Source: Elusimicrobiota bacterium (lineage in GTDB: Bacteria > Elusimicrobiota > Elusimicrobia > UBA1565). From it: 30,689 nt of DNA. The notes beneath the pieces were generated by a model. The model saw nothing but the letters and a program-made list of their open reading frames with translations, searched no databases and was not told the DNA's origin. How positions within the stretch are numbered: the first letter of the stretch is position 1; each line of letters starts with the position of its first letter. The stretch covers positions 1 to 30,689 of the forward strand of contig JBDREN010000022.1 in the NCBI GenBank assembly GCA_043819795.1. The letters run 5' to 3'. Shown here piece after piece: positions 494 through 28,347 of this stretch. Both the position numbers and the translations under genes were made by a program.

Positions 494-1726
494 CTAGAAG
501 AGGATCATGGCTCGGATGTTCCCGCCGTCCCAGATATGGCGGCCCACGTCGTCGAGGTCGAAGTTGGAATAGAGACCGATGCGGCCCGCGGCGCCGAACA
601 GGAAGTCGATGCCCAGGCCCAGCTTGGCCTCGACGGGCCTCTGCCTGACGTCGGGGCCGGGTCCCGAGGAGAAAATCTGGCGGAGCTCGCCCGAGCTGAG
701 GAAGAAGGCCGTCTCCGAGATAGCCCACGGCTTTAGCTGCCTGCGCCAGCGCGCGTAGGGCGCGGCCTCCCAGCGCTTGTGCCGCTTGTCCGCGGCCGCG
801 TCGTTGGCGAAGTCCGTCCTCGCTCCCCGCGCCATCACCTGTCCTCCGGCCTCGATGCGGTCGCGGGGGCCGAGCGCGCCTTCGACGGCCGCGAGCGCCG
901 TGTGGACCTTGCGGTGGAAGTCCTCGGATAGGGAGGCCGGGTCGGGGGAGTAGACGTCCTTTTCCCGCTTGAACTCGTAGCGGTAGCGCGCCATCCAGCC
1001 CCACGCGTCCTCCGTGGAGGGCCGCTGCCAGTCCGCCTCGAGGCGCGTGCGCCGGTAGTGGTAGACGCGGCCGGAGTCCGGGATCCGGCGGATGAGCGGC
1101 GTGTCGAGCTCGACGCGCAGGCCGATCCGGCCGCGCTCGCTCGTGAGCCGCGCTCCGAGGTCGTAGGTGATCGGCTTGCGGGCGTACGCCTCGTTGAGCT
1201 TGCCGCGGTCGTTGAAGTTGAAGTCCACGGCGTTCGCGGAGCCGTAGAACATCCATCGCGGGTCTTGCCAGCGCAGGAGCAGGCCGATATCGGCGTCTTC
1301 CTTATCGAAGGTGGGCTCGCCGAAGACCGCGCTTGAGAAGCCGGCCCAAGGGCCGGCCTCGAGCCAGATCCACTGGTGCAGGTCCACGACGTCCTTGTCC
1401 CCGCGGTGCTCCAGGCTGTAGAGGAAGGCGAACCGGTCGCCCAGCCGTTTGGGGAGGCGCGCTTCCTGCTCGATGAAAAGGTCGGTGCGGTCGAGGCTGG
1501 CGGCGTTGACCCGGTAGCCGGGGCGGGAAGGCCGCCATAGCCAGAGCCACTCCGCCGGGTAGGAGAATCCCACGAGGTCAAGGAAGTACTCGGAGTCGAA
1601 GAGAGCCTCGGTGTCCAGGTCGTCGAGCTCGTCCTTGATGAACAAGGCTTGAGCCCGCGGCGTGAGGCCCAAGAGAATCAGGCCCGAGAGCAGGGCCGCG
1701 AAGAGGCGCCGGGCCATGTTCTTCAA
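494..1726 (-). CDS. Secreted protein, probable outer-membrane beta-barrel
   Basis: Signal peptide (RRLFAALLSGLILLGLTPRAQA), amphipathic aromatic-rich strands, C-terminal Phe (GGNIRAMILF). TTG start overlaps the sixA stop; alternative ATG at 1717. Confidence 0.7.
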   Translation of the reverse strand: MKNMARRLFAALLSGLILLGLTPRAQALFIKDELDDLDTEALFDSEYFLDLVGFSYPAEWLWLWRPSRPGYRVNAASLDRTDLFIEQEARLPKRLGDRFAFLYSLEHRGDKDVVDLHQWIWLEAGPWAGFSSAVFGEPTFDKEDADIGLLLRWQDPRWMFYGSANAVDFNFNDRGKLNEAYARKPITYDLGARLTSERGRIGLRVELDTPLIRRIPDSGRVYHYRRTRLEADWQRPSTEDAWGWMARYRYEFKREKDVYSPDPASLSEDFHRKVHTALAAVEGALGPRDRIEAGGQVMARGARTDFANDAAADKRHKRWEAAPYARWRRQLKPWAISETAFFLSSGELRQIFSSGPGPDVRQRPVEAKLGLGIDFLFGAAGRIGLYSNFDLDDVGRHIWDGGNIRAMILF

Positions 1727-6059: not shown

Positions 6060-8510
6060 CTACGAATCCGCCCTGAGCGGGCCGCTTGTCTTCGGCATGT
6101 GCCCGTGTCCGTCGGGCCCTCGGCCCGTATCCGGGGGGCGATGCTCCTGCCCGCGACGGCGGAGGGAAGGCGGCTTGCGGCCCGCGCCTTTGCGCTCCTC
6201 CTTGGTGAAATACATCCACGGGGAAGCGATCTGCAGCACGCCGAGCACGGTCATCGCGACCCCGGCGATCATGAGGCTGGTGGCGATGGGGATGCCCTTG
6301 AGCACGAAGCCGTAGATATAGGTCGCCGCGATCGCCGCCAGTATGCCGAGGAAGGAGTTGGCCGCGAGGACCCGGTTCATCTGCTTGGAGCTGTACTTGC
6401 TGATGTTCTTCTGGTAGATGCCGGTCATGACGAGCCCGACGAAGCCGGCCGAAAGGCTCTGGAGGGCGTAGAGGAACAGGACCCCCCAGAAGGACGGCGA
6501 ATGGATCATGGCCCAGAACGCCAGGACCTGGACGAAGGAAACGGCGTAGAAAGGGATGGTCAGGGATTCCTCGGTCCTGAATCCCAGCTTCTTGAAGACG
6601 GCGCGCAGCGGGTTGACGAGGATGGTGGCGAGCACGCTGCCGATGCTCCCGAACATGACGAGCATCCCGAAGAAGCCCATGGGCGTGCTGATGAGCCCGT
6701 CCATGAACCAGCCGAGCACCGGCACCCCGAGTATCCCGTCCATGGCGCCCGGGCTCGCCTTGAGCACGGCGCCCACGAATTCGGGCAGGACGTTGAAGAT
6801 GAGGGGGTCCGAGAAGAGGGACATGATGAGGTTGAGCAGAAGCAGCGTCCTCAGGAACCGGCTCTTCATGACCAGCTTGAGCCCCTCCCGCATCGAGACC
6901 CAGACGCCTTTGAGCACGCTGCCGAGGCCCTTGATCGCCGGCGTGTCGTCGAGAGAGGCGGCGTCCTCCATGCCCGGGGCCGCCGGCCGCTTCTCCGCGA
7001 GGATGCGGATCGTCGCGAATACCAGCCCCGCCAGGCCTACGGCCGCGGCGTAGATGCCGTAAATGACCGCGCTGCCCGCGCCCATCTTGCCGAAGAGATC
7101 TTTGATGCCCGCGATCTTGCCGGCGATGGCCGGCGCGAGGATGGAGATGAGCGCCGAGCCCAAAGAGCGGATCGAGTTGGCCCGGAGCCGCTCCGAGGGC
7201 TTCACGCTCTTGTCGCCCAGGATGCGCGCGATGGAGCCGCCCATCATGGTGACGTAGAGTCCTTGGAAGAAGGACTGGGCTCCGATGAGGCCGAGCAGGA
7301 CGAAAAGCGCGGTCCGCGCCGAGAACACCCCGGAGAAGAAGAAGATCGCCGGGATGCCGGCCAGCACCGCCATCCGTATCAGCGCCGAGCGCACCAGCCA
7401 CTTGCGCGGTCCCTCCTGCCCCTTCGCGAAGAGCGGGATGGCCACGTAGCTGACCGCTTGCGAGACCCAATGCGCGATGCGGGCGAGGCTGCGGTTCTGG
7501 CGGACCAGCTCGGTGAGGGCCTCCGGGGTCGTGCCGGCGAGCCGGCCGTTCTCCTTGAGAGTGTTGCGGGTGAATGACTGGATCAGGTAGGGCAGCGCGA
7601 CCACGTACATCTGGAATCCGACCATATAGATCTGTTCGCCGAGGAAGATCCGCCAGAAAGCCTTGTTGCGGGCGGGGTCGCGGAAGACCGTGGTCCGCGC
7701 CCTGAAGAAGTCCCCGATCCGGCCCAGGAAGCCTTTGCGTCCCGCCTTCTCGAGGGCCGCGGGCTTCGCGGGGGCGGCGTCCTTCGTTCCGGCGCGGCTG
7801 AGGCCGGGGGAATCGGCCGCGGCTTGGGGTCTGGCGAGGCCGTGGCGCGGGGTCGCGGCGGCGATCGGGCGCGCGGCCGGGACCGGGGTCGACCCGGCTC
7901 GGGAAATGACGCTTCTCCCCGTCAGCCGGGCGATCTGCGCTTCGGCCGCGCCCCGCGCGGCCTCGGCCGGGAGGTTGTCCAACCCCGCGCGGCCGCGCGC
8001 GATCTCGCCGGCGACGCGTCCGAGCCGGAGGGAGATCCGAGAGCGGCTCTGGGCTTGGTCAAGAGGCGCCGTCCCGCCGGAAGCGGGACGAGAACGGGCC
8101 GTCGCGGGCCTTGAGGCGGGGTCCGCCGCGGGCTTGGCCGCCGTGGCGGGCGCCGGCAGGGCTGCCGAGGCCTGGGCGGCGGGCCGGATGGCTCTCGGCA
8201 GGGAGTTATCTAAGGTGAGCGGAACCGGCGCGGAGACGGCCGGCAGCGCTGGGATGAGCGTCGTCCCGGAGAGGGGTGTCCGCAGGGCCGCACGGGTCGC
8301 CCTGAGCGGGATCGCCGCGCCGGCCGCGGCCGCGGCGGAGCCGGAGACGCCTGAGACGGGGGCGACCTGAACGATGACGCTCGCCCGGGCGAGCGTGGAC
8401 TGAAGGGCCAGGCAGGCCGCCAGCAGAACGGCCAAGGTCCGCGACCATGCGCATGATCCGGCTTGTCCCCCGGCCTCGGCCGGGGCCGATTCATTTTTGG
8501 AAAAATGCAT
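6060..8510 (-). CDS. MFS transporter with long N-terminal Ala/Pro-rich extension
   Basis: C-terminal ~500 aa has many hydrophobic helices and DHA3-like segments (ERLRANS, SMREGLKLVMKSRFLRTLLLL, QMNRVLAA). Start chosen at ATG 8510; the ORF is open to 8645. Confidence 0.75.
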   Translation of the reverse strand: MHFSKNESAPAEAGGQAGSCAWSRTLAVLLAACLALQSTLARASVIVQVAPVSGVSGSAAAAAGAAIPLRATRAALRTPLSGTTLIPALPAVSAPVPLTLDNSLPRAIRPAAQASAALPAPATAAKPAADPASRPATARSRPASGGTAPLDQAQSRSRISLRLGRVAGEIARGRAGLDNLPAEAARGAAEAQIARLTGRSVISRAGSTPVPAARPIAAATPRHGLARPQAAADSPGLSRAGTKDAAPAKPAALEKAGRKGFLGRIGDFFRARTTVFRDPARNKAFWRIFLGEQIYMVGFQMYVVALPYLIQSFTRNTLKENGRLAGTTPEALTELVRQNRSLARIAHWVSQAVSYVAIPLFAKGQEGPRKWLVRSALIRMAVLAGIPAIFFFSGVFSARTALFVLLGLIGAQSFFQGLYVTMMGGSIARILGDKSVKPSERLRANSIRSLGSALISILAPAIAGKIAGIKDLFGKMGAGSAVIYGIYAAAVGLAGLVFATIRILAEKRPAAPGMEDAASLDDTPAIKGLGSVLKGVWVSMREGLKLVMKSRFLRTLLLLNLIMSLFSDPLIFNVLPEFVGAVLKASPGAMDGILGVPVLGWFMDGLISTPMGFFGMLVMFGSIGSVLATILVNPLRAVFKKLGFRTEESLTIPFYAVSFVQVLAFWAMIHSPSFWGVLFLYALQSLSAGFVGLVMTGIYQKNISKYSSKQMNRVLAANSFLGILAAIAATYIYGFVLKGIPIATSLMIAGVAMTVLGVLQIASPWMYFTKEERKGAGRKPPSLRRRGQEHRPPDTGRGPDGHGHMPKTSGPLRADS

Positions 8511-8643
8511 GGGGACATTAAACAAGAAGAGGCCCCGGGATAGAACGGTCCATCGGTCCCCAATAAGGCGTTTTTTGGGCCTACGCCTAAATGGGACTTT
8601 GGATCGGATGGAGCTTGCCGGTCGATTTAGATAGAATAAAATC

Positions 8644-10734
8644 ATGCCCTCCTCCCGGACCGAGCGTCCCCTGCGGGAACTCTCGGCGAACGAGACGCCG
8701 CGCTATATCGTGCCGTCCCACGTCCAGTACCCGCACCAGTGGCTGTGGGACAGCTGCTTCCACGCGATCGTGCTCGCTCATCTGCGCCCCGCGTCGGCCG
8801 CCCGGGAGATCGAGTCTTTGCTCGAAGGCCAGTGGGATGACGGCCGCGTGCCCCATCTCTGCTTCAGCCCGGCGATCCCCCCGGGCAAATACCGTCCGAA
8901 CGCCGAGGACTGGAATACCGGCCGCGCCAGCTCCGGCATCATCCAGCCGCCGATCATCGCCACGGCGGCGAAGGCCGTCTTCCAAAGGACCGGGGACGAC
9001 GATTTCCTGCGGAGGGTCTATCCGAAGATCGCGGCGTTCCACCGGTGGATCAAGGACACGCGCGACCCGCACGAGACGGGGCTCGTGGGCATCGTGCATC
9101 CATGGGAGTCGGGCATGGACAACAGCCCCGTGTGGGACGGTCCGCGCGCGGACTTCTTGAGGGGGTACGCCTCGCGGTCCTCCGTCCCGCCCCGCGCCGA
9201 CACGCGCGCCGTCCCGAGCTCGCAGCGTCCTACCGACGAGGACTACCGTTTCTACTGGGGGCTCGTCGAAGCCTTGCAGCGGGAGGATTGGGACGGCAGG
9301 CGCATGGCCGAGCGCTCCCCCATGTTCGTCGCCGACGTGCTCTTCAACAGCCTCTGGGCGAAGGCCAACGAGGACCTCTCGCAGATCGCCTGGCGGCTCG
9401 GCAGGAAGGGGGATTCCTCCGACTACCGCTTCTCCACCACGAAGACGCGCCGCGCGATCCGGGAGATCCTCTGGAGCCCCGGCGACGGCTTCTTCTATCC
9501 TTTCGACCTGCGCAAGGGCGAGCCGATCCGCGTCAAGACGGCCGGCGGGTTCATGCCGCTCTTCGCCCAGGCGGCCACGACGTCGATGGCGGCCGAGCTC
9601 ATCGAGCACCTCTCGGACCGGCGCGAGTTCTACTCCGCGGCCGGCGTGCCGAGCGTCTCGCTGGCGGAGGAGTCCTTCGAGCCCGAACGCTATTGGCGCG
9701 GGCCGGTCTGGGTGAACATCCAATGGCTTCTCGTGCAGGGGCTTGTCCGCTACGGGTGCTTCGAGCTCGCCCACTCGCTGGGCGAACGGATCCGGCGGGT
9801 CGTGGCCGACCAGGGATACTGGGAGTACTACGACCCGTTCAGCGGCAAGGGGCTCGGCGCGCCGCATTTCTCATGGAGCACCCTGGCCGACGTCATCGAG
9901 CCGCTCGATCCCCCGCCGGAGCTGCGGGCGAACGTGCAGGTCCTGCCCTCGGAGACGGCCGAGCGCGATGAGGAGCTGGCGACGCTCTACCTGCATCCCG
10001 AGGCGATCGAGCGCCCTATCGAGCCCGAGCAAGTGCTCTCCACTCCGCGCTATATCACGCGCCGGGTATTGGACCAGGTCCATCACGAGGCGCGCCAAGC
10101 CGGTCTGGAGCGCGGGGGGGAACCTTCCCCCGAGCGTCTCCGGCACGCCGCGTCGGCCCTCAAGGGCCTCATCCAGAGCCAGCGGGGGCTCTCGAAAGAG
10201 TATCCGCGCATCAGCGACCTCGCCTGCGTGGCGGGCGAGCTCTACTTAAAGGACCTCGGCTTCGATGTCCGCACCGTCTCGAACAAGTACCTGCATCATT
10301 ATCTCGTCGTGGAGGGGATTGATGGCCGGCGCTGGATCGTGGACCTGACGGGCAGCCAGTTCGCCTCCTATCCCGCGGCGCGCGTGCCGCTGCTCTTCGA
10401 GCGGCTCACGCTGCGCGTCGAGCGCGAGATAGGGCTCGAGTCGCCTTCCTGGATGCGGCTCGAGGACCAGCTTCTGCTGACCCAGTACGCGGTGGAGGGA
10501 TGCTTGCGGCGGCTGGGGGCCGACCGCCTGGACCGGGTCGAGCGACAAACGCTGTTGATCGTGCTGCGCCGCCACGAGGGATGCATCGATCGGCTGATCC
10601 GGCTGGCCCTGCCCTCCTCTTCGCCGTATCTGAAGAGCTACCAGCAATGGCTCTCCGCCATCATCGCCCCCCTGACTACCCGCGCCAACGATCCTATGGG
10701 CCGCCGCGTCAAGCGCGCCCCCCGCATGGCTTAG
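8644..10734 (+). CDS. Glycoside hydrolase family 63 (glucosyl/mannosylglycerate hydrolase-like) with extra C-terminal domain
   Basis: YPHQWLWDSCF, IQPPI, HPWESGMDNSPVWD, YWRGPVWVN, EYYDPFSGKGLGAPHFSWS; TAGAAT lies 6 nt before the ATG. Confidence 0.88.
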   Translation: MPSSRTERPLRELSANETPRYIVPSHVQYPHQWLWDSCFHAIVLAHLRPASAAREIESLLEGQWDDGRVPHLCFSPAIPPGKYRPNAEDWNTGRASSGIIQPPIIATAAKAVFQRTGDDDFLRRVYPKIAAFHRWIKDTRDPHETGLVGIVHPWESGMDNSPVWDGPRADFLRGYASRSSVPPRADTRAVPSSQRPTDEDYRFYWGLVEALQREDWDGRRMAERSPMFVADVLFNSLWAKANEDLSQIAWRLGRKGDSSDYRFSTTKTRRAIREILWSPGDGFFYPFDLRKGEPIRVKTAGGFMPLFAQAATTSMAAELIEHLSDRREFYSAAGVPSVSLAEESFEPERYWRGPVWVNIQWLLVQGLVRYGCFELAHSLGERIRRVVADQGYWEYYDPFSGKGLGAPHFSWSTLADVIEPLDPPPELRANVQVLPSETAERDEELATLYLHPEAIERPIEPEQVLSTPRYITRRVLDQVHHEARQAGLERGGEPSPERLRHAASALKGLIQSQRGLSKEYPRISDLACVAGELYLKDLGFDVRTVSNKYLHHYLVVEGIDGRRWIVDLTGSQFASYPAARVPLLFERLTLRVEREIGLESPSWMRLEDQLLLTQYAVEGCLRRLGADRLDRVERQTLLIVLRRHEGCIDRLIRLALPSSSPYLKSYQQWLSAIIAPLTTRANDPMGRRVKRAPRMA

Positions 10735-14377: not shown

Positions 14378-15544
14378 ATGGCAAGCGTCAAAGGCAGGAA
14401 GCTCATCGCGCGCTATCTGACCAGGCACATCGTCGCCGATCTTCCGGGGAGGATGGCCTTTGTCGGCGGGCCGCGGCGGGTCGGGAAGACCGTCCTGGCG
14501 CTCGACCTGCTCAAGCCGGGAAAGCCCGACGAGTCTCACCCGGCCTACCTGAACTGGGACGACATCCAGGACCGGAAGACCCTGCTCCGGGGAGGGCTTC
14601 CCCCGAGGCAACGGCGGATCGTCCTTGACGAGGTCCACAAGTTCAAAGGCTGGCGGAACCTCGTCAAGGGCTTCTACGACAAGAACAGGTCCCGGATATC
14701 CTTCATCATCACGGGCTCCGCCCGGCTCGACTACTACCGCAGGGGCGGGGACTCTCTCGTCGGCCGCTACCATTACTACAGGCTGCATCCTTTCTCGCTC
14801 AATGAGTTGTCCGCGCGGCCGGCCAGGTCCGACCTGGACGCCCTCCTCCGGTTCGGCGGCTTCCCCGAGCCCCTGCTGGCCGCCAGCGAAAGGACTTGGC
14901 GCAGATGGCAGATGGAGAGGCTCGCCCGGGTGGTCACCCAGGACCTGCGCGATCTGGAGAATGTGAAGGAGGTCAGCCTCATCGAGCTCCTGCTGGAGCA
15001 TCTTCCGGACTGCGTCGGCTCTCCCCTCTCGGTCAAGAGCCTCAAGGACCTGCTGCAGGTCTCGCACCAGTCGGTCGAGCGCTGGATACGGATATTGGAG
15101 CGGCTATACGTATGCTTCAGGATCCCGCCCTTCGGGTCCTCGAGGATACGGGCCGTGAAGAAGGAGCAGAAGCTCTACTTCTGGGACTGGTCGCAGGTCG
15201 CGGGCGCCGGGGCGAGATTCGAGAACCTGGTCGCGTCCCAGCTTCTCAAGTACTGCCACTTCATCGAGGACACTGAGGGGCGCAACATGGAGCTCCGCTA
15301 CGTCCGCGACACGGACAAACGGGAGATCGATTTCGTCGTCATGCAGCAAAAGCGTCCCCTCTTTGCGGTCGAGTGCAAGACCGGGGAGCGCCGTCCCGCG
15401 CCCGCCACCCAGTACTTCCGCAAGCGCACCGCCATACCCCGCTTCTACCAGGTGCACCTGGGCTCTAAGGATTACGGAGACGCCGCCTCGGGGGTCAGGG
15501 TCCTTCCATTCCTCCGGTTCTGCAAAGAATTGGACCTGCCTTGA
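14378..15544 (+). CDS. AAA+ ATPase (AAA_14) with DUF4143 / PD-(D/E)xK-like C-terminus
   Basis: Walker A GPRRVGKT, Walker B IVLDEVHK, ITGSA, DSLVGR, GGFPEP, KLYFWD, FENLV, YVRDTDKREIDFVV...AVECK. Confidence 0.92.
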   Translation: MASVKGRKLIARYLTRHIVADLPGRMAFVGGPRRVGKTVLALDLLKPGKPDESHPAYLNWDDIQDRKTLLRGGLPPRQRRIVLDEVHKFKGWRNLVKGFYDKNRSRISFIITGSARLDYYRRGGDSLVGRYHYYRLHPFSLNELSARPARSDLDALLRFGGFPEPLLAASERTWRRWQMERLARVVTQDLRDLENVKEVSLIELLLEHLPDCVGSPLSVKSLKDLLQVSHQSVERWIRILERLYVCFRIPPFGSSRIRAVKKEQKLYFWDWSQVAGAGARFENLVASQLLKYCHFIEDTEGRNMELRYVRDTDKREIDFVVMQQKRPLFAVECKTGERRPAPATQYFRKRTAIPRFYQVHLGSKDYGDAASGVRVLPFLRFCKELDLP

Positions 15545-15589
15545 ACGTTCGCGCTCCATGTTTCGGCCCCGCACCCTGCCTGGCCTGAT

Positions 15590-15623
15590 ATGAGTAAAAT
15601 CATCCATATGTGATTTTACTCAT
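15590..15623. repeat. 34-bp perfect palindrome (13-8-13), copy 2
   Basis: atgagtaaaatca-tccatatg-tgattttactcat; 13/13 arm pairs. Confidence 0.85.
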
Positions 15624-15960
15624 GGTCGGGACGCGCATGGTGGTGCCCTACATGGTGCCCTCCGAGCGTCCGATTCCGTCAATAACCAGCAACCGGTGGA
15701 AGGTCGGGCGTGGCGTTTCTCGTCGGGGAACAACGACCGTCAACTCCGGTCCAACAGGCGGGGGCAGATTAAAAGGCGCGTGCTCTTCACCGGTTCGGTC
15801 ACGTCGGACTCTACCTGCCGGCTCTCCGAGAGGGGCTTGTACGCATCGATCAGGATCGACGTGCCGCTCCTAAGCCCTGGTGTCGAGCCCCCGACCGGCG
15901 CGCAAGACCGGCCGTGTTGGACAGCCCTGAATGAAAAGAAGTATCATCGCTTCCGCTTCT

Positions 15961-17766
15961 ATGAGCGGGATTTGCGGCGAGATAAGGTTCGACCGGCGCC
16001 GGGCTTCGGTGGAGGCCGTGCGCGCGATGTGCGGCCGCATGGCGGGCCGGGGGCCGGACGGCGAGGGCGTCTTCGCGCAGGGCCCGATCGCCGTGGGGCA
16101 CCGGCGCCTGAGGATCAAGGACCTCTCGGAGCGTTCCCAGCAGCCGATGATCGACAGCGGGCTGGGCCTCGGGATCGTCTACGACGGCGCGATCTACAAC
16201 TATCCGGAGCTGCGGCGGGACCTGGAGGGAAAGGGCTGCCGATTCTTCTCTACGAGCGACGCGGAGGTCCTGCTCAAAGCCTATCACGAATGGGGCGAGG
16301 CCTTCGTCGAGAGGCTCTCGGGGATGTTCGCCTTCGCCCTTTGGGAACGCGACACGGGCCGGATCGTCTGCGCCCGGGACCGCCTGGGCATCAAGCCGTT
16401 CTACTGGGCCAGGTCCCCCAGCGTCTTCCGCTTCGCTTCCTCTCTGCCCGCCCTGTTAGCCGCCGGCGGGATCGACACGGAGATAGACCCGGTCGCTCTG
16501 CATCACTACTTGAGCTTCTATTCCGTCGTGCCGGCTCCCCGGACGGTGCTCAAGGGGGTGCGCAAGCTGCCCCCGGCGAGCGTGCTCATCGCGGAGCCGG
16601 ACGGGCGCCTGCGGCATCATCGGTATTGGGACCCGGTATTCGACCCCGTTCAGGGCGGCGCGCACGCGGGGCAGGCGCGCCCCGAGCAGGGGGCGGGCGC
16701 GAAGTCCTTCGAGGAGTGCCAGCAGGTGGTGCAGGACACCCTGCGGGCCGCGGTCCGCCGCCAGCTGGTCGCCGACGTCCCCGTCGGGGTCCTGCTCTCC
16801 GGCGGGCTGACCTCCAGCCTCCTCGTCTGCCTGCTCACCGAGGCCGGGCAGCACGGCATATCGACTTTCTCCATCGGGTTCGAGGACGAGGGCGAGGAGG
16901 GCGACAAGTTCCGGTGCGCGGACCTCGTGGCCGAGCGCTTCGCGACCGATCACCACAAGATCCAGGTCAAGCCCCGGCGCCTGCTCGCCTCCCTCAAGAA
17001 CTGCGTGAGGGCCATGTCCGAGCCCATGGCCGGCCATGACTGCATAGGCTTCTTCCTGCTCTCCGAGGAGGTGTCCAAGCAGGTCAAGGTAGCGCAGAGC
17101 GGCCAGGGCGCCAACGAGATCTTCGCCGGCGGGCATTGGTACCCGGCGCTGCTCGAGAGCGCCGACCCGGTCGCGGACTGCGTCCGGGTGTTCTTCGACC
17201 GCGGGCACGCGGAATTCGCCCGCGCGGTCCACCCCCGCTTCGTGGACCGCGACCACAGCCGGGAGTTCGTGGCCGCGCATTTCGAGCGGCCCGGAGCGAG
17301 GCGGAGCATCGACAAGGCGCTGCGCCTCGACGCCACGGCGATCCTCCCCGAGGGGGCGGCTCGGCGCGTCGACAATATGTCGATGGCGTGGGGGCTCGAG
17401 GCCCGGCTGCCGCTCTTGGACCACACGATCGTCGAGACCGCGAGCCGCATCCCGGCCGAGTTCAAAGCGGGCGAGGCCGGCAAGGACGTTCTGAAGGAGG
17501 CCGCGCGCAAGCTGCTTCCCCCCGAGGTAATCGACCGCCCGGGCGCCCACTTCCCCGTCGCCGCCATGACCCGGATGCGGGGCGAGCACCTGGATTTCGT
17601 AAGGGAGATCCTGCAGGATCCCGCCGCGCAGCGGCGCGAGCTCTTCCACCGGGAGTACATCGAGGAGCTTCTCAAGGAGCCGGAGGCCCACCTGACCCCC
17701 CTTGGGGGATCGAAGCTCTGGCAGGTCGCCCTCCTGCATTACTGGCTATCCTGTCAAGGACTCTGA
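15961..17766 (+). CDS. AsnB-family protein of the NAGGN amidotransferase (AsnO) type, with degenerate catalytic motifs
   Basis: xGICGEIRFD, RGPD, GHRRL, ARDRLGIKP, IDPVALHHYL, MSEPM-HDC, QSGQGA, RVDNM-MAWGLEAR, HLTPL-GSKLWQ. Confidence 0.88.
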   Translation: MSGICGEIRFDRRRASVEAVRAMCGRMAGRGPDGEGVFAQGPIAVGHRRLRIKDLSERSQQPMIDSGLGLGIVYDGAIYNYPELRRDLEGKGCRFFSTSDAEVLLKAYHEWGEAFVERLSGMFAFALWERDTGRIVCARDRLGIKPFYWARSPSVFRFASSLPALLAAGGIDTEIDPVALHHYLSFYSVVPAPRTVLKGVRKLPPASVLIAEPDGRLRHHRYWDPVFDPVQGGAHAGQARPEQGAGAKSFEECQQVVQDTLRAAVRRQLVADVPVGVLLSGGLTSSLLVCLLTEAGQHGISTFSIGFEDEGEEGDKFRCADLVAERFATDHHKIQVKPRRLLASLKNCVRAMSEPMAGHDCIGFFLLSEEVSKQVKVAQSGQGANEIFAGGHWYPALLESADPVADCVRVFFDRGHAEFARAVHPRFVDRDHSREFVAAHFERPGARRSIDKALRLDATAILPEGAARRVDNMSMAWGLEARLPLLDHTIVETASRIPAEFKAGEAGKDVLKEAARKLLPPEVIDRPGAHFPVAAMTRMRGEHLDFVREILQDPAAQRRELFHREYIEELLKEPEAHLTPLGGSKLWQVALLHYWLSCQGL

Positions 17767-17803
17767 CCGTTATGTCCGCGGCCGGAGGTAAGACGAGACG
17801 AGC

Positions 17804-19201
17804 ATGATCGAGCTCGGCGAAGGCAATCTCAGGGTCCCCGCGTGGACGCGTCCGGTGTTCATGGTGTCCATGGGGACGACGGATTATCGCAGGCGCTACC
17901 CCGAGAAGCGGCTCGAAGAGCTCTGCATGACGGCCTTCCGGATGCTCCTCGAGGACAACGACCTGAAGATGGACCCCTTGGAGGTGAAGAGGCTCCTCAA
18001 CTTCGCGTGCTACGGGTCGTTCGCCGACCATTTTCAGGACCAGCTCCTCTGCGAGGCCAAGGTCCACGACTACCTGGGGCTCGACCCCCTGCCGAACGTC
18101 GGCGTGAAGACCGGCGGGGCCACCGGCGGCTCGACGCTGCTGATGGGCGCCAGCACGATCGCCAGCGGCATGTCGGACTGCACCTTGGTGATGGGCTGGG
18201 AGCGGATGGACGAGGTCAAGACCTGGACCGGCAACTATTACATCGCCTCCGCGGCCTGCAAGGATTTCGAGACCCGGCTGTCCCGGAACTACGCCAGCTA
18301 CTACGCGCCGATGGCCCGCCGTTTTCAGCAGATGAACAAGGTGGACGACCGTGTCCGCGCGGAGATCGCCGTCAAGAACCGGGGCTACGCATGCAGCTCC
18401 CCGTTCGCCCAGCAGCCCGGGAGGCATACGGTGGAGGAGGTGCTGGCCGACAAGATCGTGTCGGACCCGCTCCGGCAGCTCGAGTGCTGCGCCATGAGCG
18501 TGGGCTCCGCCGCCGTCCTGCTATGCTCGGAGGACCTGGCCCACAAGCTGACGGACAGCCCCGTCCGCCTCCACGTCGCGGGCGGTTCGGGCACCCTGCG
18601 CGCCGGGGACCGCCGCCATACGCGGATACCGCTGCTTGCGCACGAGCGCGAGGAGGACCACCGGGAGCTCTATGAGCGGCTGCGCGAGGCCGACGGCCGC
18701 TGGCCCGGTTTCGAGAGCTTCGGGGCGGCCCGTTTCGCCGCCAGCATGGTCTACCGCATGGCCGGGATCGGCGTACCTGTCGAGGACCTGGACCTCGTCG
18801 AGACCCATGACGCCTTCACGATATCCGACCTCCAGACCTACGGGGACGTCGGGCTGACCCGCTACGGCGCGGAGCAGGAGTACGTCACCTCCGGGGAGTG
18901 CTACCTCAAGAACCCGCGCACGGGCAAGCCGGGGAAATGCCCCGCCAACCTGTCCGGGGGGCTGTTGGGAACCATGCACGCGGTAGGCGCGACCGGCATC
19001 TTCCAGGCGGGCGAGATCCTTTGGCAGCTTCAAGGCAAGTACGACAAGTTCCACGGCGATCCGAAGATGTGGAGCCGCTGGGGCAAGAGGAAGCCGGAGG
19101 ACTGGGAAAGCCTCCAGGCGAGCGATCCCCGCCGGGGCCTGGCCATCTCCCACGCCGGGGTCGGCAGCCACGTGACCTGCGCGGTACTGGAGAAGGCGTG
19201 A
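17804..19201 (+). CDS. Thiolase-domain protein (SCP2/archaeal-type) lacking the nucleophilic Cys
   Basis: KTGGATGG, GWERM, IAVKNR, DPLRQLECC, DLVETHDAFTI, NLSGGLLGTMHAVGATG. Confidence 0.85.
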   Translation: MIELGEGNLRVPAWTRPVFMVSMGTTDYRRRYPEKRLEELCMTAFRMLLEDNDLKMDPLEVKRLLNFACYGSFADHFQDQLLCEAKVHDYLGLDPLPNVGVKTGGATGGSTLLMGASTIASGMSDCTLVMGWERMDEVKTWTGNYYIASAACKDFETRLSRNYASYYAPMARRFQQMNKVDDRVRAEIAVKNRGYACSSPFAQQPGRHTVEEVLADKIVSDPLRQLECCAMSVGSAAVLLCSEDLAHKLTDSPVRLHVAGGSGTLRAGDRRHTRIPLLAHEREEDHRELYERLREADGRWPGFESFGAARFAASMVYRMAGIGVPVEDLDLVETHDAFTISDLQTYGDVGLTRYGAEQEYVTSGECYLKNPRTGKPGKCPANLSGGLLGTMHAVGATGIFQAGEILWQLQGKYDKFHGDPKMWSRWGKRKPEDWESLQASDPRRGLAISHAGVGSHVTCAVLEKA

Positions 19202-19713
19202 TGGGCGAGCGCGTGGAGCTGAGGGCGACTCCTCTGAGGATGTCCGAGAAGGGCGGCGCCTGGGTGCTGCGCGTTCCCAGGCTTGGCAACGTGGGCGGCC
19301 ACCAGCACACGCTCGGCCTGCTGACCCCCTACTTCAGGGGACTCAAGGAAGGGAGGCTGCTGGGCACGAGGTGCGTCGATCCGAAATGCCCCGTCCGCGA
19401 TGGCAAAGGCGAGCTGTGGATCCCGCCTCGCGCCGATTGCCCCGACTGCCACCGGCCGATGCTCTGGGACGAGGTGAAGGAGCCGCGGGGCGCCGTCTAC
19501 ACCTACACCTACGTGGAGCAGGGGGGGACGGGCCTCGAGATCGAGTGCCCCTACTATCAGATCGACGTCAGGATCCAAGGGGTCTGCACGATCGTCAAGA
19601 GCTACCTGATCGACCGCAAGCCGATAAAGATCGGGGACGCCGTGAGGGCGCGCTTCCGCACCGGGGTTCGGGCGACCCACACGTGCCTCGATCTCTACTG
19701 GGAGCTGGTCTGA
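19201..19713 (+). CDS. DUF35-type Zn-ribbon/OB-fold protein (thiolase partner)
   Basis: TGATG coupling with the thiolase; YFRGLKEGRLLGTRC-x4-C...PPRADCPDC, GAVYTYT, IKIGDAVRARF. Confidence 0.88.
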   Translation: MGERVELRATPLRMSEKGGAWVLRVPRLGNVGGHQHTLGLLTPYFRGLKEGRLLGTRCVDPKCPVRDGKGELWIPPRADCPDCHRPMLWDEVKEPRGAVYTYTYVEQGGTGLEIECPYYQIDVRIQGVCTIVKSYLIDRKPIKIGDAVRARFRTGVRATHTCLDLYWELV

Positions 19714-19714
19714 T

Positions 19715-20998
19715 ATGGCCGATCATCCCCGATCCGAGGGTGACGCGCCCCTTCCCGCCCTGAGGAGCGATCTGGACGCCTTCCCCGTCGAGCACGAGGG
19801 CAAGCCCGTGTTCGTCCTCGATGACAGGGAGGGCCTGAGCGGGCGGGTCATGGCGCTTTCGCCCGGCGGCATGCTCGTCGCCTCGCTGCTCGACGGCCGC
19901 CATACGGCCGACGAGCTGTGCGCCATCGTGGCTGAGCATGCGGGAGCTCCGGTGGACGCGGCCGATATCCGCAAGATCGTGGAGGAACTGGAGGGGGCGG
20001 ATCTCCTGGAGACCGAGCGGGTCCGGGCCAAGCGCCGGAAGATCCTCGAGGATTTTAAGACGAGTCCCGTGCGCAAAGCCGTGATGAGCGGCGCCGGATA
20101 TCCCGAGAGCGCCCTGGAGCTGGCGGGTCTCTTCGGCGGCTTCATGCGCGATCCCAAGGGCCCCGGCAAGGCCTTGCCGGAGCGTCCCGCGTCCGCCCCG
20201 CCACCGCTCGGGCTCGTGAGCCCCCATATCGATTTTCAGCGCGGCGGACCGGCGTACGCCTGGGCCTATCAGGCTCTGGCCGAGTCGCCGCCTCCGGACC
20301 TTATCGTGGCTCTCGGCGTCGCTCATGCCGGGCCCAAATCCCCCTGGATAATGACTCCGAAAGCCTATGAGACCCCCCATGGGCCGATGGCCGTGGACTC
20401 CGGGCTTTACGACGAGATCGCGGGCTGCCTGTGGTACGACCCGCGCGACGACGAGTGGGCCCACCGGCGGGAGCATTCGCTGGAGGCCCAGGCCGTGTGG
20501 CTGCGGTTCCTTTGGCGCGAGAAGACCCCGCCGTGGGTCCCGATCCTATGCTCGTCGTTCGAGCGCTTCTCTCCCGACCGTCCGCCTTCGTCCGTCTCCA
20601 CTATCGAGGGCGCCATCGAGAAGATAGGCGACAAGCTGGCCGCGCGGGCGAAGGGCGGCCAGAGGATCATGGTCCTGGCGGGCGTGGACCTCGCTCACGT
20701 GGGCCCTCGGTTCGGCGACGATATCGCATTGGACGCCGGGCTGGAGAAGCGGATCGAGACCGAGGACCGGGGCTCGCTGGAGCACGCCCTGCGGCTGGAC
20801 GCCGACGAGTTCTATCGTTCCACGATCGCCGGCGGCCACTGGAGGAAGGTGTGCGGGCTGTCGGCCCTCTATACCTCCCTTCGCTGGATCAAGGCCTTGA
20901 GCCCGGACGGGCGGCCTCCGGGAGAGCTTCTGACCTACGCGCAGTCCTACGATCCCCTGGGCGGGATCGTCTCCTACGTCAGCGCGATCTTCCGCTGA
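19715..20998 (+). CDS. amrB: MEMO1-family protein (AmmeMemoRadiSam protein B) with N-terminal PqqD-like domain
   Basis: LVSPHIDFQRGG, GVAH, YETPHG, HRREHSLE, VDLAHVGPRFGD, VCG; N-terminal LLDGRHTADEL...IVEELEGADLLE. Confidence 0.85.
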   Translation: MADHPRSEGDAPLPALRSDLDAFPVEHEGKPVFVLDDREGLSGRVMALSPGGMLVASLLDGRHTADELCAIVAEHAGAPVDAADIRKIVEELEGADLLETERVRAKRRKILEDFKTSPVRKAVMSGAGYPESALELAGLFGGFMRDPKGPGKALPERPASAPPPLGLVSPHIDFQRGGPAYAWAYQALAESPPPDLIVALGVAHAGPKSPWIMTPKAYETPHGPMAVDSGLYDEIAGCLWYDPRDDEWAHRREHSLEAQAVWLRFLWREKTPPWVPILCSSFERFSPDRPPSSVSTIEGAIEKIGDKLAARAKGGQRIMVLAGVDLAHVGPRFGDDIALDAGLEKRIETEDRGSLEHALRLDADEFYRSTIAGGHWRKVCGLSALYTSLRWIKALSPDGRPPGELLTYAQSYDPLGGIVSYVSAIFR

Positions 20999-21080
20999 GA
21001 TCGAGAGTCAGGCTGGAGTCTCAATAAGTTTCATAAGTTGCAGCCTGACGCCGATTTCTCGCTCGCGGCGCTGTCTTGAC

Positions 21081-21110
21081 TTGACGGTGGTGCTTGATCG
21101 CTTATAACAT
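21081..21110 (+). promoter_or_regulatory. Sigma70-type promoter
   Basis: TTGACG (21081-21086) with TATAAC (21103, 16-nt spacer) or TAACAT (21105, 18-nt spacer); GGAG SD before ATG 21153. Confidence 0.55.
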
Positions 21111-21152
21111 CCCCAGTGCGGCTGCCGGACGGCGGCCGCCGGAGCGGATATC

Positions 21153-22592
21153 ATGATGGACGTTGACGAGTTCTTCGGCGCGCGGGCGGGCTTCTGGGAC
21201 CGGAGCCTCGCCCGGCTCAGCCTGGGGCTCATCCTGCGCGGCGCGCGGATCGATCCGGCCTCGGAGATCCCGCTCGCCGGCGTTCCCTCGCCGCTGGTCC
21301 CGGGCTTGAACCTCCTGGAGCGGGCCAAGGACGGCTCGCGCGGGACGGACCTGGCCGGCGACGGGCCGGGCGCGCCGGTCATCGTGGGAACGGTGCGGAT
21401 GGGGTTCGGGCACCATCGCATCGCGTACTCCGCCCACAGCTGGGCGATCGAGAAGGGGATGCGCCCCTACCTCCACGACCTCATTGGGATCGAATCGCAG
21501 GAGTCGGACGTCATTCGGCGCATGGACGCCAACTACTGCCGCCTTTCCCGGCTCGCCGCGGACTTAGGCGGCCCCTTCGATTGGGTGTGGGGCAGGCTGA
21601 TGCAGCAGGGGGACCTCAAGACCCTGAGGCTCTTCTGCCGCCTGGCGGAGGCCGTCGCGCCGCTGATGCGATCGCTTCCCAAGGATGTCCCCGTGATCGG
21701 CTCGCACCCATTGAACTCCCAGATCGCGGTGGCGTGCGGGTTCCGCCACGTCATCAACCTGGTCATCGACAACTATCCCCAGTACTTCGTCATGGCCCCG
21801 GGGGCGATCCATCTCGTGCAGAGCCCCGCCCACGGGATGCAGCTGGTCAAAATGGGCTTGCCCCAGGAATCGGTCCGGTACGGGGGGCACTGGGTATCTC
21901 AAGACGTTTGCGCCAACGCGGCCGAGGATTGCGCCCGGCGCATCGAACGCGCCGATCGCGGCGCGCCCCGAAGGTTGCTGGCTCCGGTGGGCGGCGCCGG
22001 GGCCCAGGGGGGCTTTCTCACGGACCTCGTCAAGCGCCTGGGGCCGCGGCTGGCCGAGGGCAAGGTCCGGCTGCTGCTCAACGCCGGCCATCACCGGCAC
22101 ATGCGGCCCGCGCTCGAGAGGACCCTCAATGAGGCGGGGATCGAGTTCGACACGGTGCGGACCTGGAGCGAGCTCGAGGAGTTCTGCCGGGTCCACACCC
22201 TGAGCGGAAGCGAGCCCGCCGGCGCCAAGCCCGCGGTGCTAGCCTCGTTCGAGGACTACTTCGAGGCCTTCTCGGCCACGGACCGCCTCATCCGGGTGTC
22301 GGACGTGCTCGTGACCAAGCCTTCCGAGCTCGCCTTCTACCCCATCCCCAAGCTGCATATCCGCCGTGTGGGCGGGCATGAAGAGCCCTCGGCCATCCGG
22401 TCGAGCGAGCTGGGCGACGGCTCCCCCGAGTGCCGCGAGCCGGCGGACGCGGAGCGGATGGCGGGGCTTCTCGTGGACGACAGGCACATGTTCATCCGCA
22501 TGAACGAGAGCATCATCCGCAACTCGGCCGCCGGGGTCTACTCGGGCGGCAAGACGGCCGTCGAGCTGGCGGCGGAGCTTTCCAAAGTTTAG
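21153..22592 (+). CDS. Conserved hypothetical protein, probable GT-B glycosyltransferase-like fold
   Basis: MGFGHHRIA, SHPL, VGGAGAQ and SDVLVTKPSE resemble MGDG-synthase/GT28-like motifs. Confidence 0.6.
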   Translation: MMDVDEFFGARAGFWDRSLARLSLGLILRGARIDPASEIPLAGVPSPLVPGLNLLERAKDGSRGTDLAGDGPGAPVIVGTVRMGFGHHRIAYSAHSWAIEKGMRPYLHDLIGIESQESDVIRRMDANYCRLSRLAADLGGPFDWVWGRLMQQGDLKTLRLFCRLAEAVAPLMRSLPKDVPVIGSHPLNSQIAVACGFRHVINLVIDNYPQYFVMAPGAIHLVQSPAHGMQLVKMGLPQESVRYGGHWVSQDVCANAAEDCARRIERADRGAPRRLLAPVGGAGAQGGFLTDLVKRLGPRLAEGKVRLLLNAGHHRHMRPALERTLNEAGIEFDTVRTWSELEEFCRVHTLSGSEPAGAKPAVLASFEDYFEAFSATDRLIRVSDVLVTKPSELAFYPIPKLHIRRVGGHEEPSAIRSSELGDGSPECREPADAERMAGLLVDDRHMFIRMNESIIRNSAAGVYSGGKTAVELAAELSKV

Positions 22593-26349: not shown

Positions 26350-28347
26350 TCACTCGGACCGGGGGGGAAGGGGACGGATCAGCTCGAAGTTGCACAGGAC
26401 GGTCTCGATCCTCCCGTCCTGGTCGGTCTTGAACTTGCCGTTGGGGCTCATGGATAGCAGCAGATGGCGGCCGTTGGGATCGAGCATCTCGCAGCCGCTC
26501 TCTTCCAGCTTCGCCCGCAGCCGGCTCATGCTCTCCCGGTAGGCGCTCTCGCTCAGCAGCCCGAACTCGTGCGCGGTGAAGGCGTCGACGGACAGCGTCA
26601 CGGCGACCTCGCCGCCTTCATCGCGGCGGACCTTCCCATCCTCGCCGCAGGAGACGACCATCTGGTGGTTCTCGATCCCCTGGTTGACGAAACCGGCGGC
26701 GCGTAGGCGGCTCTTCGTCCTACTTAGGACGCCATCGAACTCTTCGTCGCCGATGCGGCCCTCTTCGCGCGCCTGCTCCACATCGAGCACCCGGAAGTCT
26801 TTGCCCCCGCGGCCTTCCCTGTGCGGGTCGATGCCGCGGTAGTAGCCCCAGATGCTGTAATAGTCATGATGTGGGCTGAGAAGCGGTCCCGGCGCGGGCT
26901 CCGGCGTCATGAGGGACTCGTGGCTGGCGAACCGGCTGTTGTCCCAATGGAGGATGGGCCGGGTGGACGGATGCCCCGTGCGGTACACGGCGCGCGGATA
27001 GGCCGTGAGTATCCCCGACCGGCGCAGCCGCTCCGCGAGCGCTACCTCCTCGAAGGGGCTGTTGTAGCCGTGCTTCCGGATGCGCTTGCCCCGGTCGAAG
27101 AGGGGCTCGACGCGCGGCCGCATGCCCACCCGCGACCGGCGGTAGACGAAGTAGACGGCGTCGCGCGTGCGGGTGAGGTAGGCCTCGCTGGTCGAGGCCA
27201 GGTTGATCCGGGGGGTCCGGCGCCACCGGTCCGGCAGGAAATAGTCGCGCAGGTCCGGATCATGGCCCACGACCCATAGCTTCCCGCCATCGGGCGTCGC
27301 CCCGAAGACGTAGTCGACCCCGAAGACGGTGGTGGGCTTCAGGTCCGACGGGAGGGCCGCGGGCGTCGAGGCCCTGGGGTGGCTCTGCAGCCGCCAGTAC
27401 CGTTCCCGCCGCTCGGTCTTGAACCGGCGCTTGTGCTCCTGGGTGCGCTGCAGCAGCTCGAAGTCCACCAGGCCATAGACGAGGCGCCTCGCTCCGCGCC
27501 GCATGATCTCTTGATCGCGCCGGCGATTCCTGAGGATGAAATGCACCGGCTTGTTGTCCAGCACCTCGAAGCCCTTCGCCGAGAGCTCCTCTATGACGCG
27601 CGGCGTCAGGTCCGAGAAATCCTGTTCGCTGATGTCTCCGTCCTTCAGCGCCTGCTCGGCGTCCTTCCCCTTCAGCCAATCGTAGAGCAGTACGTAGATC
27701 CGCTTGATATCGAGCTCGATGGCCTTTGGGGCGTTCTCCTGGTCCTTCGCGAGCCGGAAGCGATGCGCGTGGAAGGTGTCCCTGCTCCGGCCGAGCTGCC
27801 AGCTCTTGTGCTCTTCGGGCGGGGCGTAGATGGCGAGAGGGCGGTGGGTCAGCATCCGAGGCGCCCTCGGCCCGAAATCGCCCCGCCGCAGCTCCATGAG
27901 AAGGCCGAACTCCTCCATGGGTCCGTTGAATCGCGCGTTGGCGATCACCTCCGGGGGGATGTCCTCGGGGAAAGTGGTCGCCACCACGAGCGGGACGTCC
28001 TGCGCGACTCGCGAGAACTTGACGACGAGGTCCAGGGATCTGTCGCGCACCGGCTTGGTGCGCACATGGTAGACGTGGCCCGAGCCGCGGAGCCGGAGGC
28101 CCTTCTTCGCGTACCAGTTATCCGCGTGCCAATTATCCGGCGTCAAGAGCGGGGCGTGCGGCCAGCCGTAGCGCGTGACGTAGAGGTCGCCGCCTTCGCG
28201 AAGATGCACGTGGCCGTAATCGACCCCGAAGGCTCTGACGACCATCTCCGGAGGCAGCTCGTCGAACGGGGTCGCGAGTAGCGAAAGAGGGTCTGCCGGG
28301 GCTGCGGGGCCGTCCCCTATATCAACCATGGTGAGCGCCGGTCCCAT
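26350..28347 (-). CDS. Hypothetical protein with two tandem protein-kinase-like domains
   Basis: LVVKF, PMEEF, VLDNKPVHFIL, VDFEL; second copy VYRRSRV, PFEEV, LDPNGRHLLL, CNFEL. Confidence 0.65.
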   Translation of the reverse strand: MGPALTMVDIGDGPAAPADPLSLLATPFDELPPEMVVRAFGVDYGHVHLREGGDLYVTRYGWPHAPLLTPDNWHADNWYAKKGLRLRGSGHVYHVRTKPVRDRSLDLVVKFSRVAQDVPLVVATTFPEDIPPEVIANARFNGPMEEFGLLMELRRGDFGPRAPRMLTHRPLAIYAPPEEHKSWQLGRSRDTFHAHRFRLAKDQENAPKAIELDIKRIYVLLYDWLKGKDAEQALKDGDISEQDFSDLTPRVIEELSAKGFEVLDNKPVHFILRNRRRDQEIMRRGARRLVYGLVDFELLQRTQEHKRRFKTERRERYWRLQSHPRASTPAALPSDLKPTTVFGVDYVFGATPDGGKLWVVGHDPDLRDYFLPDRWRRTPRINLASTSEAYLTRTRDAVYFVYRRSRVGMRPRVEPLFDRGKRIRKHGYNSPFEEVALAERLRRSGILTAYPRAVYRTGHPSTRPILHWDNSRFASHESLMTPEPAPGPLLSPHHDYYSIWGYYRGIDPHREGRGGKDFRVLDVEQAREEGRIGDEEFDGVLSRTKSRLRAAGFVNQGIENHQMVVSCGEDGKVRRDEGGEVAVTLSVDAFTAHEFGLLSESAYRESMSRLRAKLEESGCEMLDPNGRHLLLSMSPNGKFKTDQDGRIETVLCNFELIRPLPPRSE

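Follow-up and report, generated by a model that had tools for sequence, protein, structure and literature searches.

A candidate pseudoenzyme of AsnO descent, with both catalytic sites substituted, in an Elusimicrobiota genome

We analyzed a 30,689-nucleotide stretch of Elusimicrobiota bacterium DNA (contig JBDREN010000022.1 of assembly GCA_043819795.1; hereafter the window), in which an open reading frame (ORF) at 15961-17766 on the forward strand encodes a 601-residue relative of AsnO, the amidotransferase that forms N-acetylglutaminylglutamine amide (NAGGN), a dipeptide that protects against salt. The protein descends from AsnO but fails both the catalytic and the gene-linkage tests of the active family and, judging from its sequence, should not be filed as a working member. 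Our preferred explanation, to which we give about even credence, is that it is a folded pseudoenzyme, derived from a likely transferred AsnO gene and kept for a non-catalytic binding role.

Ancestry and catalytic residues

Profile scans of 30 ORFs in the window gave the AsnO-type ORF a full-length match to TIGR03104 (NAGGN amidotransferase AsnO), together with matches to PF13537/PF13522 and PF00733, corresponding to an N-terminal nucleophile (Ntn) domain and a pyrophosphate-binding-loop (PP-loop) synthetase domain. All 601 codons are open, with no internal stop, and the GC content at third codon positions (GC3) is 0.91, the same as in native genes. An alternative ATG lies upstream at 15931, and the -10 box of a promoter-like site falls 3′ of it; the database protein entry has the 601-residue form. 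A two-domain AsnB-type fold (Ntn plus PP-loop synthetase) was predicted by AlphaFold (predicted template modelling score 0.81, leaning on 6 homologue rows). The best structural match of the model in Foldseek was TsnB9 (7YLZ; template modelling (TM) score 0.75, E 2.7e-32); E. coli AsnB (1CT9) matched with a TM score of 0.64, and ASNS also matched.

The initial annotation of this DNA, made from the letters alone, had listed nine motif changes relative to a family consensus. All nine were found at the places given (MSG, YDGAIYN, DAEV, SGGLTSS, GDKF, GANE, GGHW, PEGAARR, and RPGAHF), and that consensus agrees with an alignment of the 119 best homologues. Alignment to AsnB and to the NAGGN amidotransferase profile, which had been proposed as a check, passed the TIGR03104 cut-off by a wide margin and bore out the substitutions. 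The accompanying claim that nearly all catalytic motifs are substituted holds for motifs but not for residues, as 12 of 20 literature-listed active-site positions are kept. This list, taken from PMC6748925 and PMC11615228, was hand-mapped via pairwise alignments, which leaves Asp-294, Asp-400, and Ile-287 uncertain by a residue. The catalytic pockets are nonetheless enriched in change: 8 of the 20 positions are altered, compared to 28 of the remaining 223 conserved columns (Fisher p 0.004). In human ASNS numbering, the changed equivalents are Cys-1, Val-52, Asn-74, Asp-261, Asp-294, Asp-367, the Asp-400 segment, and Lys-466, while Arg-48, Gly-75, Asp-96, Glu-414, Ser-362, Gly-363, Glu-368, Arg-403, and Asp-405 are kept. 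Kept site positions in the protein's own numbering include R49, G76, D100, S380, G381, Q382, E386, R469, D471, and E480.

Cys-1 is the glutaminase nucleophile of ASNS, the Lys-466 equivalent is essential in asparagine synthetase B (AS-B), and human D367A is inactive while D367N has reduced activity (PMC6748925). In the AsnO-type protein, the N-terminal Cys is Ser2, the PP-loop SGGxD reads SGGLT, and the catalytic Lys of the RxKxxF loop is Gly528. The oxyanion Asn75 is Asp, though Gly76 and the glutamine anchors Arg49 and Asp100 are kept. Since the nucleophile, oxyanion Asn, PP-loop Asp, and catalytic Lys are gone together, both half-reactions, glutamine splitting and carboxylate adenylation, are very unlikely to remain. 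Essential catalytic residues, whose absence defines a pseudoenzyme, are absent here. Erosion is stronger in the ATP/acceptor site, where 29 of 162 conserved columns are changed compared to 6 of 79 in residues 1-200, and the acidic residues for Mg/pyrophosphate and for the acceptor have had their charge removed or inverted.

To place this degree of change, we compared the protein with its 119 best homologues (best 120 of 8000 scored candidates, query included). It differs at 24 of the 150 columns that are invariant in these homologues (homologues: median 0, maximum 4) and at 35 of the 241 whose conservation is at least 95% (median 2, maximum 13). The neighboring thiolase-like protein, treated alike, is changed at only 2 of 154 invariant and 9 of 249 conserved columns (controls, for which 59 of its 119 homologues were scored: median 0 and 1, maximum 6). 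The excess change is therefore specific to the AsnO-type protein rather than genome-wide noise.

The nearest homologue, P0002, is 66% identical, has intact motifs, and groups as sister to the AsnO-type protein in trees; only two indels separate the two, both in frame. Identity to intact members is 58-66%, the best of the 150 best representatives at 50% clustering reaches 56% over full length, and the best among 80 genome and 59 metagenome loci reaches 60% (the 80 genome loci, mostly Geodermatophilaceae, are a biased sample). The nearest DNA homologues are 55-60% identical, with GC3 of 0.52-0.72 compared to 0.91.

Contigs from sequencing run X1 match the window at 16043-16233, 16415-16565, and 16618-16768 (0 differences) and at 17591-17920 (2 differences). 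They cover N75D, I53K, H187Y, W253C, and E593H; C2S, D284T, E316K, D385N, Y391G, and K528G fall outside them. As X1 is possibly the source sample, this agreement may not be independent support. Strain variation in run X1 comprised one listed difference, outside the ORF, and a second run, X2, yielded no match on the gene. Contig integrity is consistent with the native Memo gene downstream and with X1 pieces of similar depth on both sides.

Likely constraint on the reading frame and fold

In place of a ratio of nonsynonymous to synonymous substitution rates, we let an ancestor-like sequence undergo uniform neutral drift in simulations, each tuned to yield 35 changed columns, with three alternative mutation spectra. 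The initial annotation had held that the changes are not the pattern expected of random decay, and uniform neutral drift was indeed rejected. Changes were clustered, with 31 pairs within 5 residues compared to 13 in simulations (p<=0.0007), and 5 codons needed two or more changes compared to 1.1-1.2 (p 0.003-0.006). Among literature positions scored in the simulations, 7 of 18 were changed, with ~3 expected (p 0.012-0.017). No conserved hydrophobic residue had become polar, compared to 2.9-4.3 simulated (p 0.01-0.04), and residues 1-200 carried 6 changes rather than 11.3 (p 0.02-0.03). Sparing of glycine was not significant in the simulations (p 0.06-0.33). In segments chosen post hoc, 21 of 34 columns were changed in the pockets and 1 of 45 in residues 106-230.

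A two-class model was fitted to the share of multiply hit codons, drawing on five codons, taking the consensus as ancestor, and leaving positive selection aside. It classed between about a quarter and two fifths of the conserved columns as free, with 0.19-0.31 substitutions per site. Drift of this extent should have produced 4-14 stops, whereas the ORF has none (P of ~0.02 or less). Indels have been observed at about one tenth the rate of substitutions (PMC6054270); with 114-138 substitutions simulated, some ten or more indels would be expected under neutrality. The 601 codons contain no frameshift, nor did we find a disabling stop or truncation of the kind that marks a pseudogene. Given the clustering, the excess of multiply hit codons, the absence of hydrophobic-to-polar changes, and the absence of stops and frameshifts, the frame and folding core are likely to be under selection while catalysis has been released, with overall constraint looser than normal. 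Of the two signs of a young pseudogene that the initial annotation had named, intact motifs in close homologues and neutral evolution in this lineage, the first is present in P0002, but the second was rejected by the simulations.

Cys-less relatives and gene neighborhood

Two or more of six key residues were changed in 7 of the 150 representatives. Of these, P0159 and P0162 were dropped as apparently frameshifted or partial. P0137 and P0152, which start MSG, have Asn75 replaced by Thr or Met, and keep intact synthetase motifs, were treated as a separate pair with a dead glutaminase site only; they are possibly ammonia- or amine-dependent enzymes. The remaining three, P0161, P0179, and P0214, resemble the Elusimicrobiota protein. 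P0179 is one of five clusters that form a Tessaracoccus/Arachnia clade (P0179, P0394, P0395, P0396, and P0409; 49 member sequences, 48-81% identical), whose forms share a ~60-residue deletion over the GYHWY region.

All 7 of these proteins that were aligned (from the Tessaracoccus/Arachnia clade, plus P0161 and P0214) lack Cys2 and have Asp75; the oxyanion position is Asp in all other Cys-less forms aligned except P0137 and P0152. Residues 106-230 are the best-kept region in each of the 7, compared to 1 of 8 intact controls, a pattern that may reflect only the structural core, as no catalytic residue lies there. A quickly built 23-row tree, in which branches are long (up to 2.0 for end branches of Cys-less forms), placed 4 changes, at least 3 of them forced. 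A single origin of all dead forms was tried and rejected (approximately unbiased test, p-AU 2e-7). On this tree, Cys-less AsnO forms appear to have arisen independently at least three times, including in the Tessaracoccus/Arachnia clade. Among sampled Actinomycetes genomes, 46 of 401 (a tally with one unpublished genome, G747) matched at 45-50% identity and none at the level of the Tessaracoccus clade, and a further set gave 0 of 15; the clusters found with P0179 in the ESM Atlas were all of ordinary asparagine synthases. We found no study of the Tessaracoccus/Arachnia Cys-less proteins in the open literature that we searched.

AsnO amidates the N-acetylglutaminylglutamine (NAGG) that Ngg makes (PMC8070244). 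The usual NAGGN partners, Ngg and the M42 peptidase, had been noted as missing from the window, and the absence extends to the genome (90.3% complete), where Ngg (TIGR03103) gave no match over the cut-off and the M42 peptidase (TIGR03106) no match. As a control, Ngg was found near 79 of 80 intact AsnO loci, while the M42 query matched at only 2 of 80. With no Ngg found, an AsnO enzyme would therefore have no substrate. A partial Ngg-like match in the genome is to an 885-aa protein that we take to be cyanophycin synthetase. It is the last of three genes at G000:C140:4533-8866 (L108), presumably encoding isoaspartyl peptidase, cyanophycinase, and cyanophycin synthetase. The active AsnO paralogue that the initial annotation had suggested seeking did not turn up in the genome, which has only three AsnB-like paralogues at 29-33% identity. 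One of these, at G000:C142:8419-10335 (L001), starts MGG and has FIGD at the oxyanion site, and hence is glutaminase-dead; its synthetase motifs are the same as in the intact paralogue at G000:C103:10380-12299.

TIGR03104 passes its cut-off in 1 of 401 genomes of the phylum, the window's own, and 40 relatives contained no AsnO orthologue, only other AsnB-like genes (best 36-46% identity). Acquisition of the gene by transfer is therefore likely. The thiolase-like gene downstream is also foreign: it occurs in 1 of 201 phylum genomes (E<=1e-80), again the window's own, and relatives 77-83% identical belong to other phyla. It reads GGATGG at what we take to be the position of the classical thiolase Cys nucleophile. 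In all 23 related loci, the thiolase has a DUF35 neighbor. The Memo gene is present in 21 of 31 genomes, own included; a tblastx comparison of the window with the loci for Memo neighbors gave noise only.

Promoter-like sites in 15500-21200 number 2, compared to 0.4 +- 0.9 in shuffles. The first, immediately before the AsnO-type ORF (Table 1), would leave a very short leader, and the next downstream is at 21081-21110. Between the first site and the thiolase, no terminator-like site was found save a single weak one within the ORF, as chance alone would give. From this arrangement, the AsnO-type gene likely heads a four-gene transcript with the thiolase-like, DUF35, and Memo genes.

Table 1. Coordinates of the AsnO-type ORF, its substituted segments, and adjacent features in the window
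Feature	Position	Strand	Basis or remark
AsnO-type amidotransferase ORF, very probably inactive (P0001, 601 aa)	15961..17766	+	TIGR03104 833.8 bits; cut-off 570.1
C2S, N-terminal nucleophile Cys to Ser (MSG, AGC)	15964..15966	+	codon read; homologue alignment
N75D, oxyanion Asn (human Asn-74) to Asp (YDGAIYN, GAC)	16183..16185	+	alignment; X1 contig, 0 differences
Residues 106-230, second half of Ntn domain and linker	16276..16650	+	best-kept region: 44/45 conserved columns
D284T, PP-loop SGGxD Asp (human Asp-261; SGGLTSS, ACC)	16810..16812	+	two base changes required
E316K, Y319C, S320A in GDEFxYS segment (GDKF, AAG at 16906)	16906..16920	+	hand-mapped to human Asp-294
D385N (human Asp-367; GANE, AAC at 17113), Y391G, P396A in SGQGADE / GYHWYP segment	17113..17148	+	
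Residues 461-468, MLVDDPVK to ILPEGAAR, acceptor-pocket segment (human Asp-400 region)	17341..17364	+	
Residues 528-538, catalytic-Lys loop KGYFPVPALKY to GAHFPVAAMTR (human Lys-466; GGC at 17542)	17542..17574	+	
Sigma-70-like promoter match TGGACA-18-TATCAT	15918..15947	+	10/12 consensus positions; 13 bases before ATG; function predicted
Thiolase-like gene (PF00108, PF22691; best NCBIfam PRK06365, below cut-off)	17804..19201	+	37 bases past AsnO-type ORF
DUF35/ChsH2-type OB-fold gene	19201..19713	+	overlaps thiolase stop (GTGATG)
PqqD-Memo (AmmeMemoRadiSam B) gene	19715..20998	+	native to lineage; probable last gene of transcript

Elsewhere in the window, a GH63/MGH1-like hydrolase gene at 8644-10734 (+) (glucosylglycerate hydrolase family, below cut-off; ~280 extra C-terminal residues matching no family) is a second compatible-solute-related gene on the contig. 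A 665-aa ORF at 26350-28347 (-) has no Pfam or NCBIfam match and appears by eye to consist of two similar halves with kinase-like motifs. The 861-aa ORF at 6060-8645 (-) combines a long Ala/Pro-rich N-terminal part with a many-helix membrane part. After a SixA-type phosphatase gene comes a 410-aa ORF at 494-1726 (-) with a signal-like start, a C-terminal Phe, and no family match, possibly an outer-membrane barrel. A secreted-looking repeat/PKD protein encoded at 28797-30347 (-), with GC3 of 0.70 compared to 0.85-0.92 in the other genes measured, is possibly a recent acquisition.

Possible explanations and their meaning

The explanation we prefer, a folded pseudoenzyme with a binding role, would run as follows. 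A protein of AsnO ancestry has lost Cys2, Asn75, Asp284, Glu316, Asp385, Tyr391, the Asp465 segment, and Lys528, and, from the biochemistry of its homologues, would carry out neither glutamine splitting nor carboxylate adenylation. The gene would have come by transfer, with Ngg lost or never brought; in the resulting absence of NAGG, the catalytic residues would have been freed. Drift at the freed positions would then have reached ~0.2-0.3 substitutions per site, with frame and core maintained, as the simulations indicate. In the last and weakest step, selection may keep the binding of glutamine, of an adenine nucleotide without turnover, or of a protein partner, making the protein a sensor or scaffold. 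A possible target would be the thiolase-DUF35 pair, predicted to be co-transcribed with it. Binding without turnover is the most economical guess because the glutamine anchors R49, G76, D100, and E480 and the adenosine-side motifs LLSGG, TFSIGF, and SGQG remain.

A number of observations weigh against this explanation. The loosening, as read from the sequence comparison, is broad and extends beyond catalytic residues: at 60 positions the protein has a residue that no homologue among the 119 shows (the homologues themselves have a median of 5 such residues and a maximum of 19), and the excess change is alike in most conservation bins (0.16, 0.10, 0.15, 0.16, 0.00, and 0.15). I53K falls on a glutamine-contact position (human Val-52), and radical changes outside the sites include W253C, L258Q, V310E, S338P, and L493T. 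No ribosome-binding site is evident before the ATG. With the fitted GC-ward spectrum, simulated sequences escaped any stop with a chance of 0.21, compared to 0.02-0.03 with the other two. No protein with the same changes was found among the 119 best of 8000 scored homologues, the 150 representatives, the 80 genome loci, or the 59 metagenome loci, which answers the orthologue search that the initial annotation had proposed. The parallels are also imperfect. In four of the five Tessaracoccus clusters, both the PP-loop Asp and the catalytic Lys are still present, so these forms may still be enzymes, able to adenylate, and only a partial parallel; one member of the clade is split into 392 and 126 aa; and P0161 and P0214 are single metagenome records. 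Finally, an AsnO neighbor was found in 0 of 23 thiolase loci (within +-1.5 kb only, one locus being cut at the gene start), and thiolase, DUF35, or Memo near AsnO in 0 of 80 AsnO loci. I53K and the absence of any conserved partner speak against a ligand- or partner-binding job. For the proposal of the initial annotation that the protein was repurposed as a scaffold, sensor, or regulatory subunit, neither a co-occurring partner nor an orthologue with the same changes was found.

A similar pattern would be left by a relic that is still expressed but has no job, and whose fold and frame are preserved by its place as first gene of an operon. In this scenario, use of the gene was lost with Ngg, and it sits between the promoter and useful genes (thiolase-like, DUF35, and Memo). 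Stops and frameshifts would be polar and misfolding costly, so that frame and core are passively held while the active sites drift. The gene's occurrence as a singleton in the phylum, the promoter-like site upstream with no terminator-like site above chance before the thiolase, the broad loosening, and the lack of a conserved partner all fit, as does the direction of change, which is mostly A>G and T>C, toward the host's high GC. However, a clean deletion of the ORF would spare the promoter and remove the cost, and Cys-less AsnO forms have persisted in other lineages along much longer branches. The 0.2-0.3 substitutions per free site also amount to a long opportunity for loss, while non-functional bacterial genes are usually purged quickly (PMC2916853). 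That finding comes from Salmonella, another lineage, and by analogy argues against long persistence of a useless gene. We regard such a relic as less likely than the pseudoenzyme, though as its main rival.

Alternatively, the protein could be a rewired enzyme whose pockets have been reshaped for other chemistry. Examples would be an Ntn hydrolase that uses Ser as its nucleophile, or an enzyme that forms adenylates but has a different acceptor; such an enzyme might work together with the thiolase on a substrate linked to CoA. Ser-type Ntn hydrolases exist, and here Ser would be N-terminal after Met removal. The changes cluster at the pockets, several of them multi-base, as positive selection would also produce, and R49, G76, D100, E386, R469, and D471 are kept; human D367N retains reduced activity (PMC6748925). 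Yet the PP-loop Asp, a second acidic residue, and the Lys essential in AS-B are all gone together, most replacements are small (Gly, Ala) and remove rather than add function, and searches show no family of relatives with the new residues. We regard rewiring as improbable.

The remaining reading, a young unexpressed pseudogene in uniform neutral decay before its first stop, or an assembly artefact, would fit the intact motifs of the nearest homologue, the even excess across conservation bins, the no-stop chance of up to 0.21, and the lack of other contigs over most catalytic codons, but uniform decay is already largely refuted by the clustering, the multi-hit excess, the sparing of the hydrophobic core, and the missing frameshift where roughly ten or more indels were expected (PMC6054270), while assembly errors would spare neither the core nor the neighboring thiolase and the X1 contigs agree where present, which leaves this reading very improbable.

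How does the protein compare with known systems? Like AsnO of the asnO-ngg-M42 cassette (S. meliloti asnO, P. aeruginosa PA3459), it matches TIGR03104 over its full length and keeps family-specific segments; unlike the cassette, it has both catalytic sites substituted, no Ngg or M42 found, and a thiolase-DUF35 pair downstream. It shares its predicted two-domain fold and sequence matches with class II (Ntn) AsnB-fold proteins (1CT9, human ASNS 6GQ3, TsnB9 7YLZ) but has their Cys-1, Asn-74, Asp-261, Asp-294, Asp-367, Asp-400 segment, and Lys-466 equivalents replaced. Beta-lactam synthetase, carbapenam synthetase CarA, and lasso-peptide cyclases keep a dead Ntn domain as structure, with the glutaminase site lost and the ATP-site synthetase residues working. 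Structural matches to 1MBZ and 1Q15, and a match to NF033535 below cut-off, recall this type; membership fails, as the PP-loop Asp, Asp385, and Lys528 are lost. With the Tessaracoccus/Arachnia proteins (WP_182782545.1, WP_068751900.1), P0161, and P0214, it shares loss of Cys2, Asn75 to Asp, and residues 106-230 as the best-kept region, but the origins are independent, and the Tessaracoccus/Arachnia proteins carry the ~60-residue deletion and mostly keep the PP-loop Asp and catalytic Lys.

Pseudoenzymes in general are already known, among them the pseudo-glutamine-amidotransferases of herpesviruses, which are of the phosphoribosylformylglycinamidine (FGAM) synthetase type. The viral protein is likewise an enzyme-deficient amidotransferase homologue with a non-catalytic job, in which it cooperates with a cellular amidotransferase (PMC7605207). 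It differs in belonging to another amidotransferase family and to a eukaryotic virus, whereas here no active AsnO partner was found in the genome. No dead bacterial AsnO or AsnB is described, by title or abstract, in the open literature that our search covered; subscription papers and supplements lay outside its scope.

DUF35 joins thiolase and HMG-CoA (3-hydroxy-3-methylglutaryl coenzyme A) synthase in known complexes (PMC12960953), and HMG-CoA synthase gave 0 matches in the 90.3% complete genome. A bolder version of our preferred explanation, to which we attach little weight, is that AsnO-type pseudoenzymes recur with a shared non-catalytic job and that this one would serve as a glutamine/adenylate-binding sensor in a thiolase-DUF35 complex, replacing HMG-CoA synthase and coupling nitrogen or energy status to acyl-CoA metabolism.

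Because the family cut-off is passed by a wide margin, databases name the protein a glutamine-hydrolysing amidotransferase and thus imply NAGGN synthesis; both are very probably wrong. At 66% identity to an intact relative, the protein would represent an early stage in the transition from enzyme to pseudoenzyme, so that its lost residues can be traced one by one; this transition appears to have occurred several times in the AsnO family, with the same first changes (Cys to Ser/Thr and Asn to Asp). If the protein has no job, it would be a clear example of the long persistence of an expressed but useless bacterial protein. If a non-catalytic job proves true, it would be a new moonlighting role for the widespread AsnB fold, and cultured Tessaracoccus strains would make the parallel testable.

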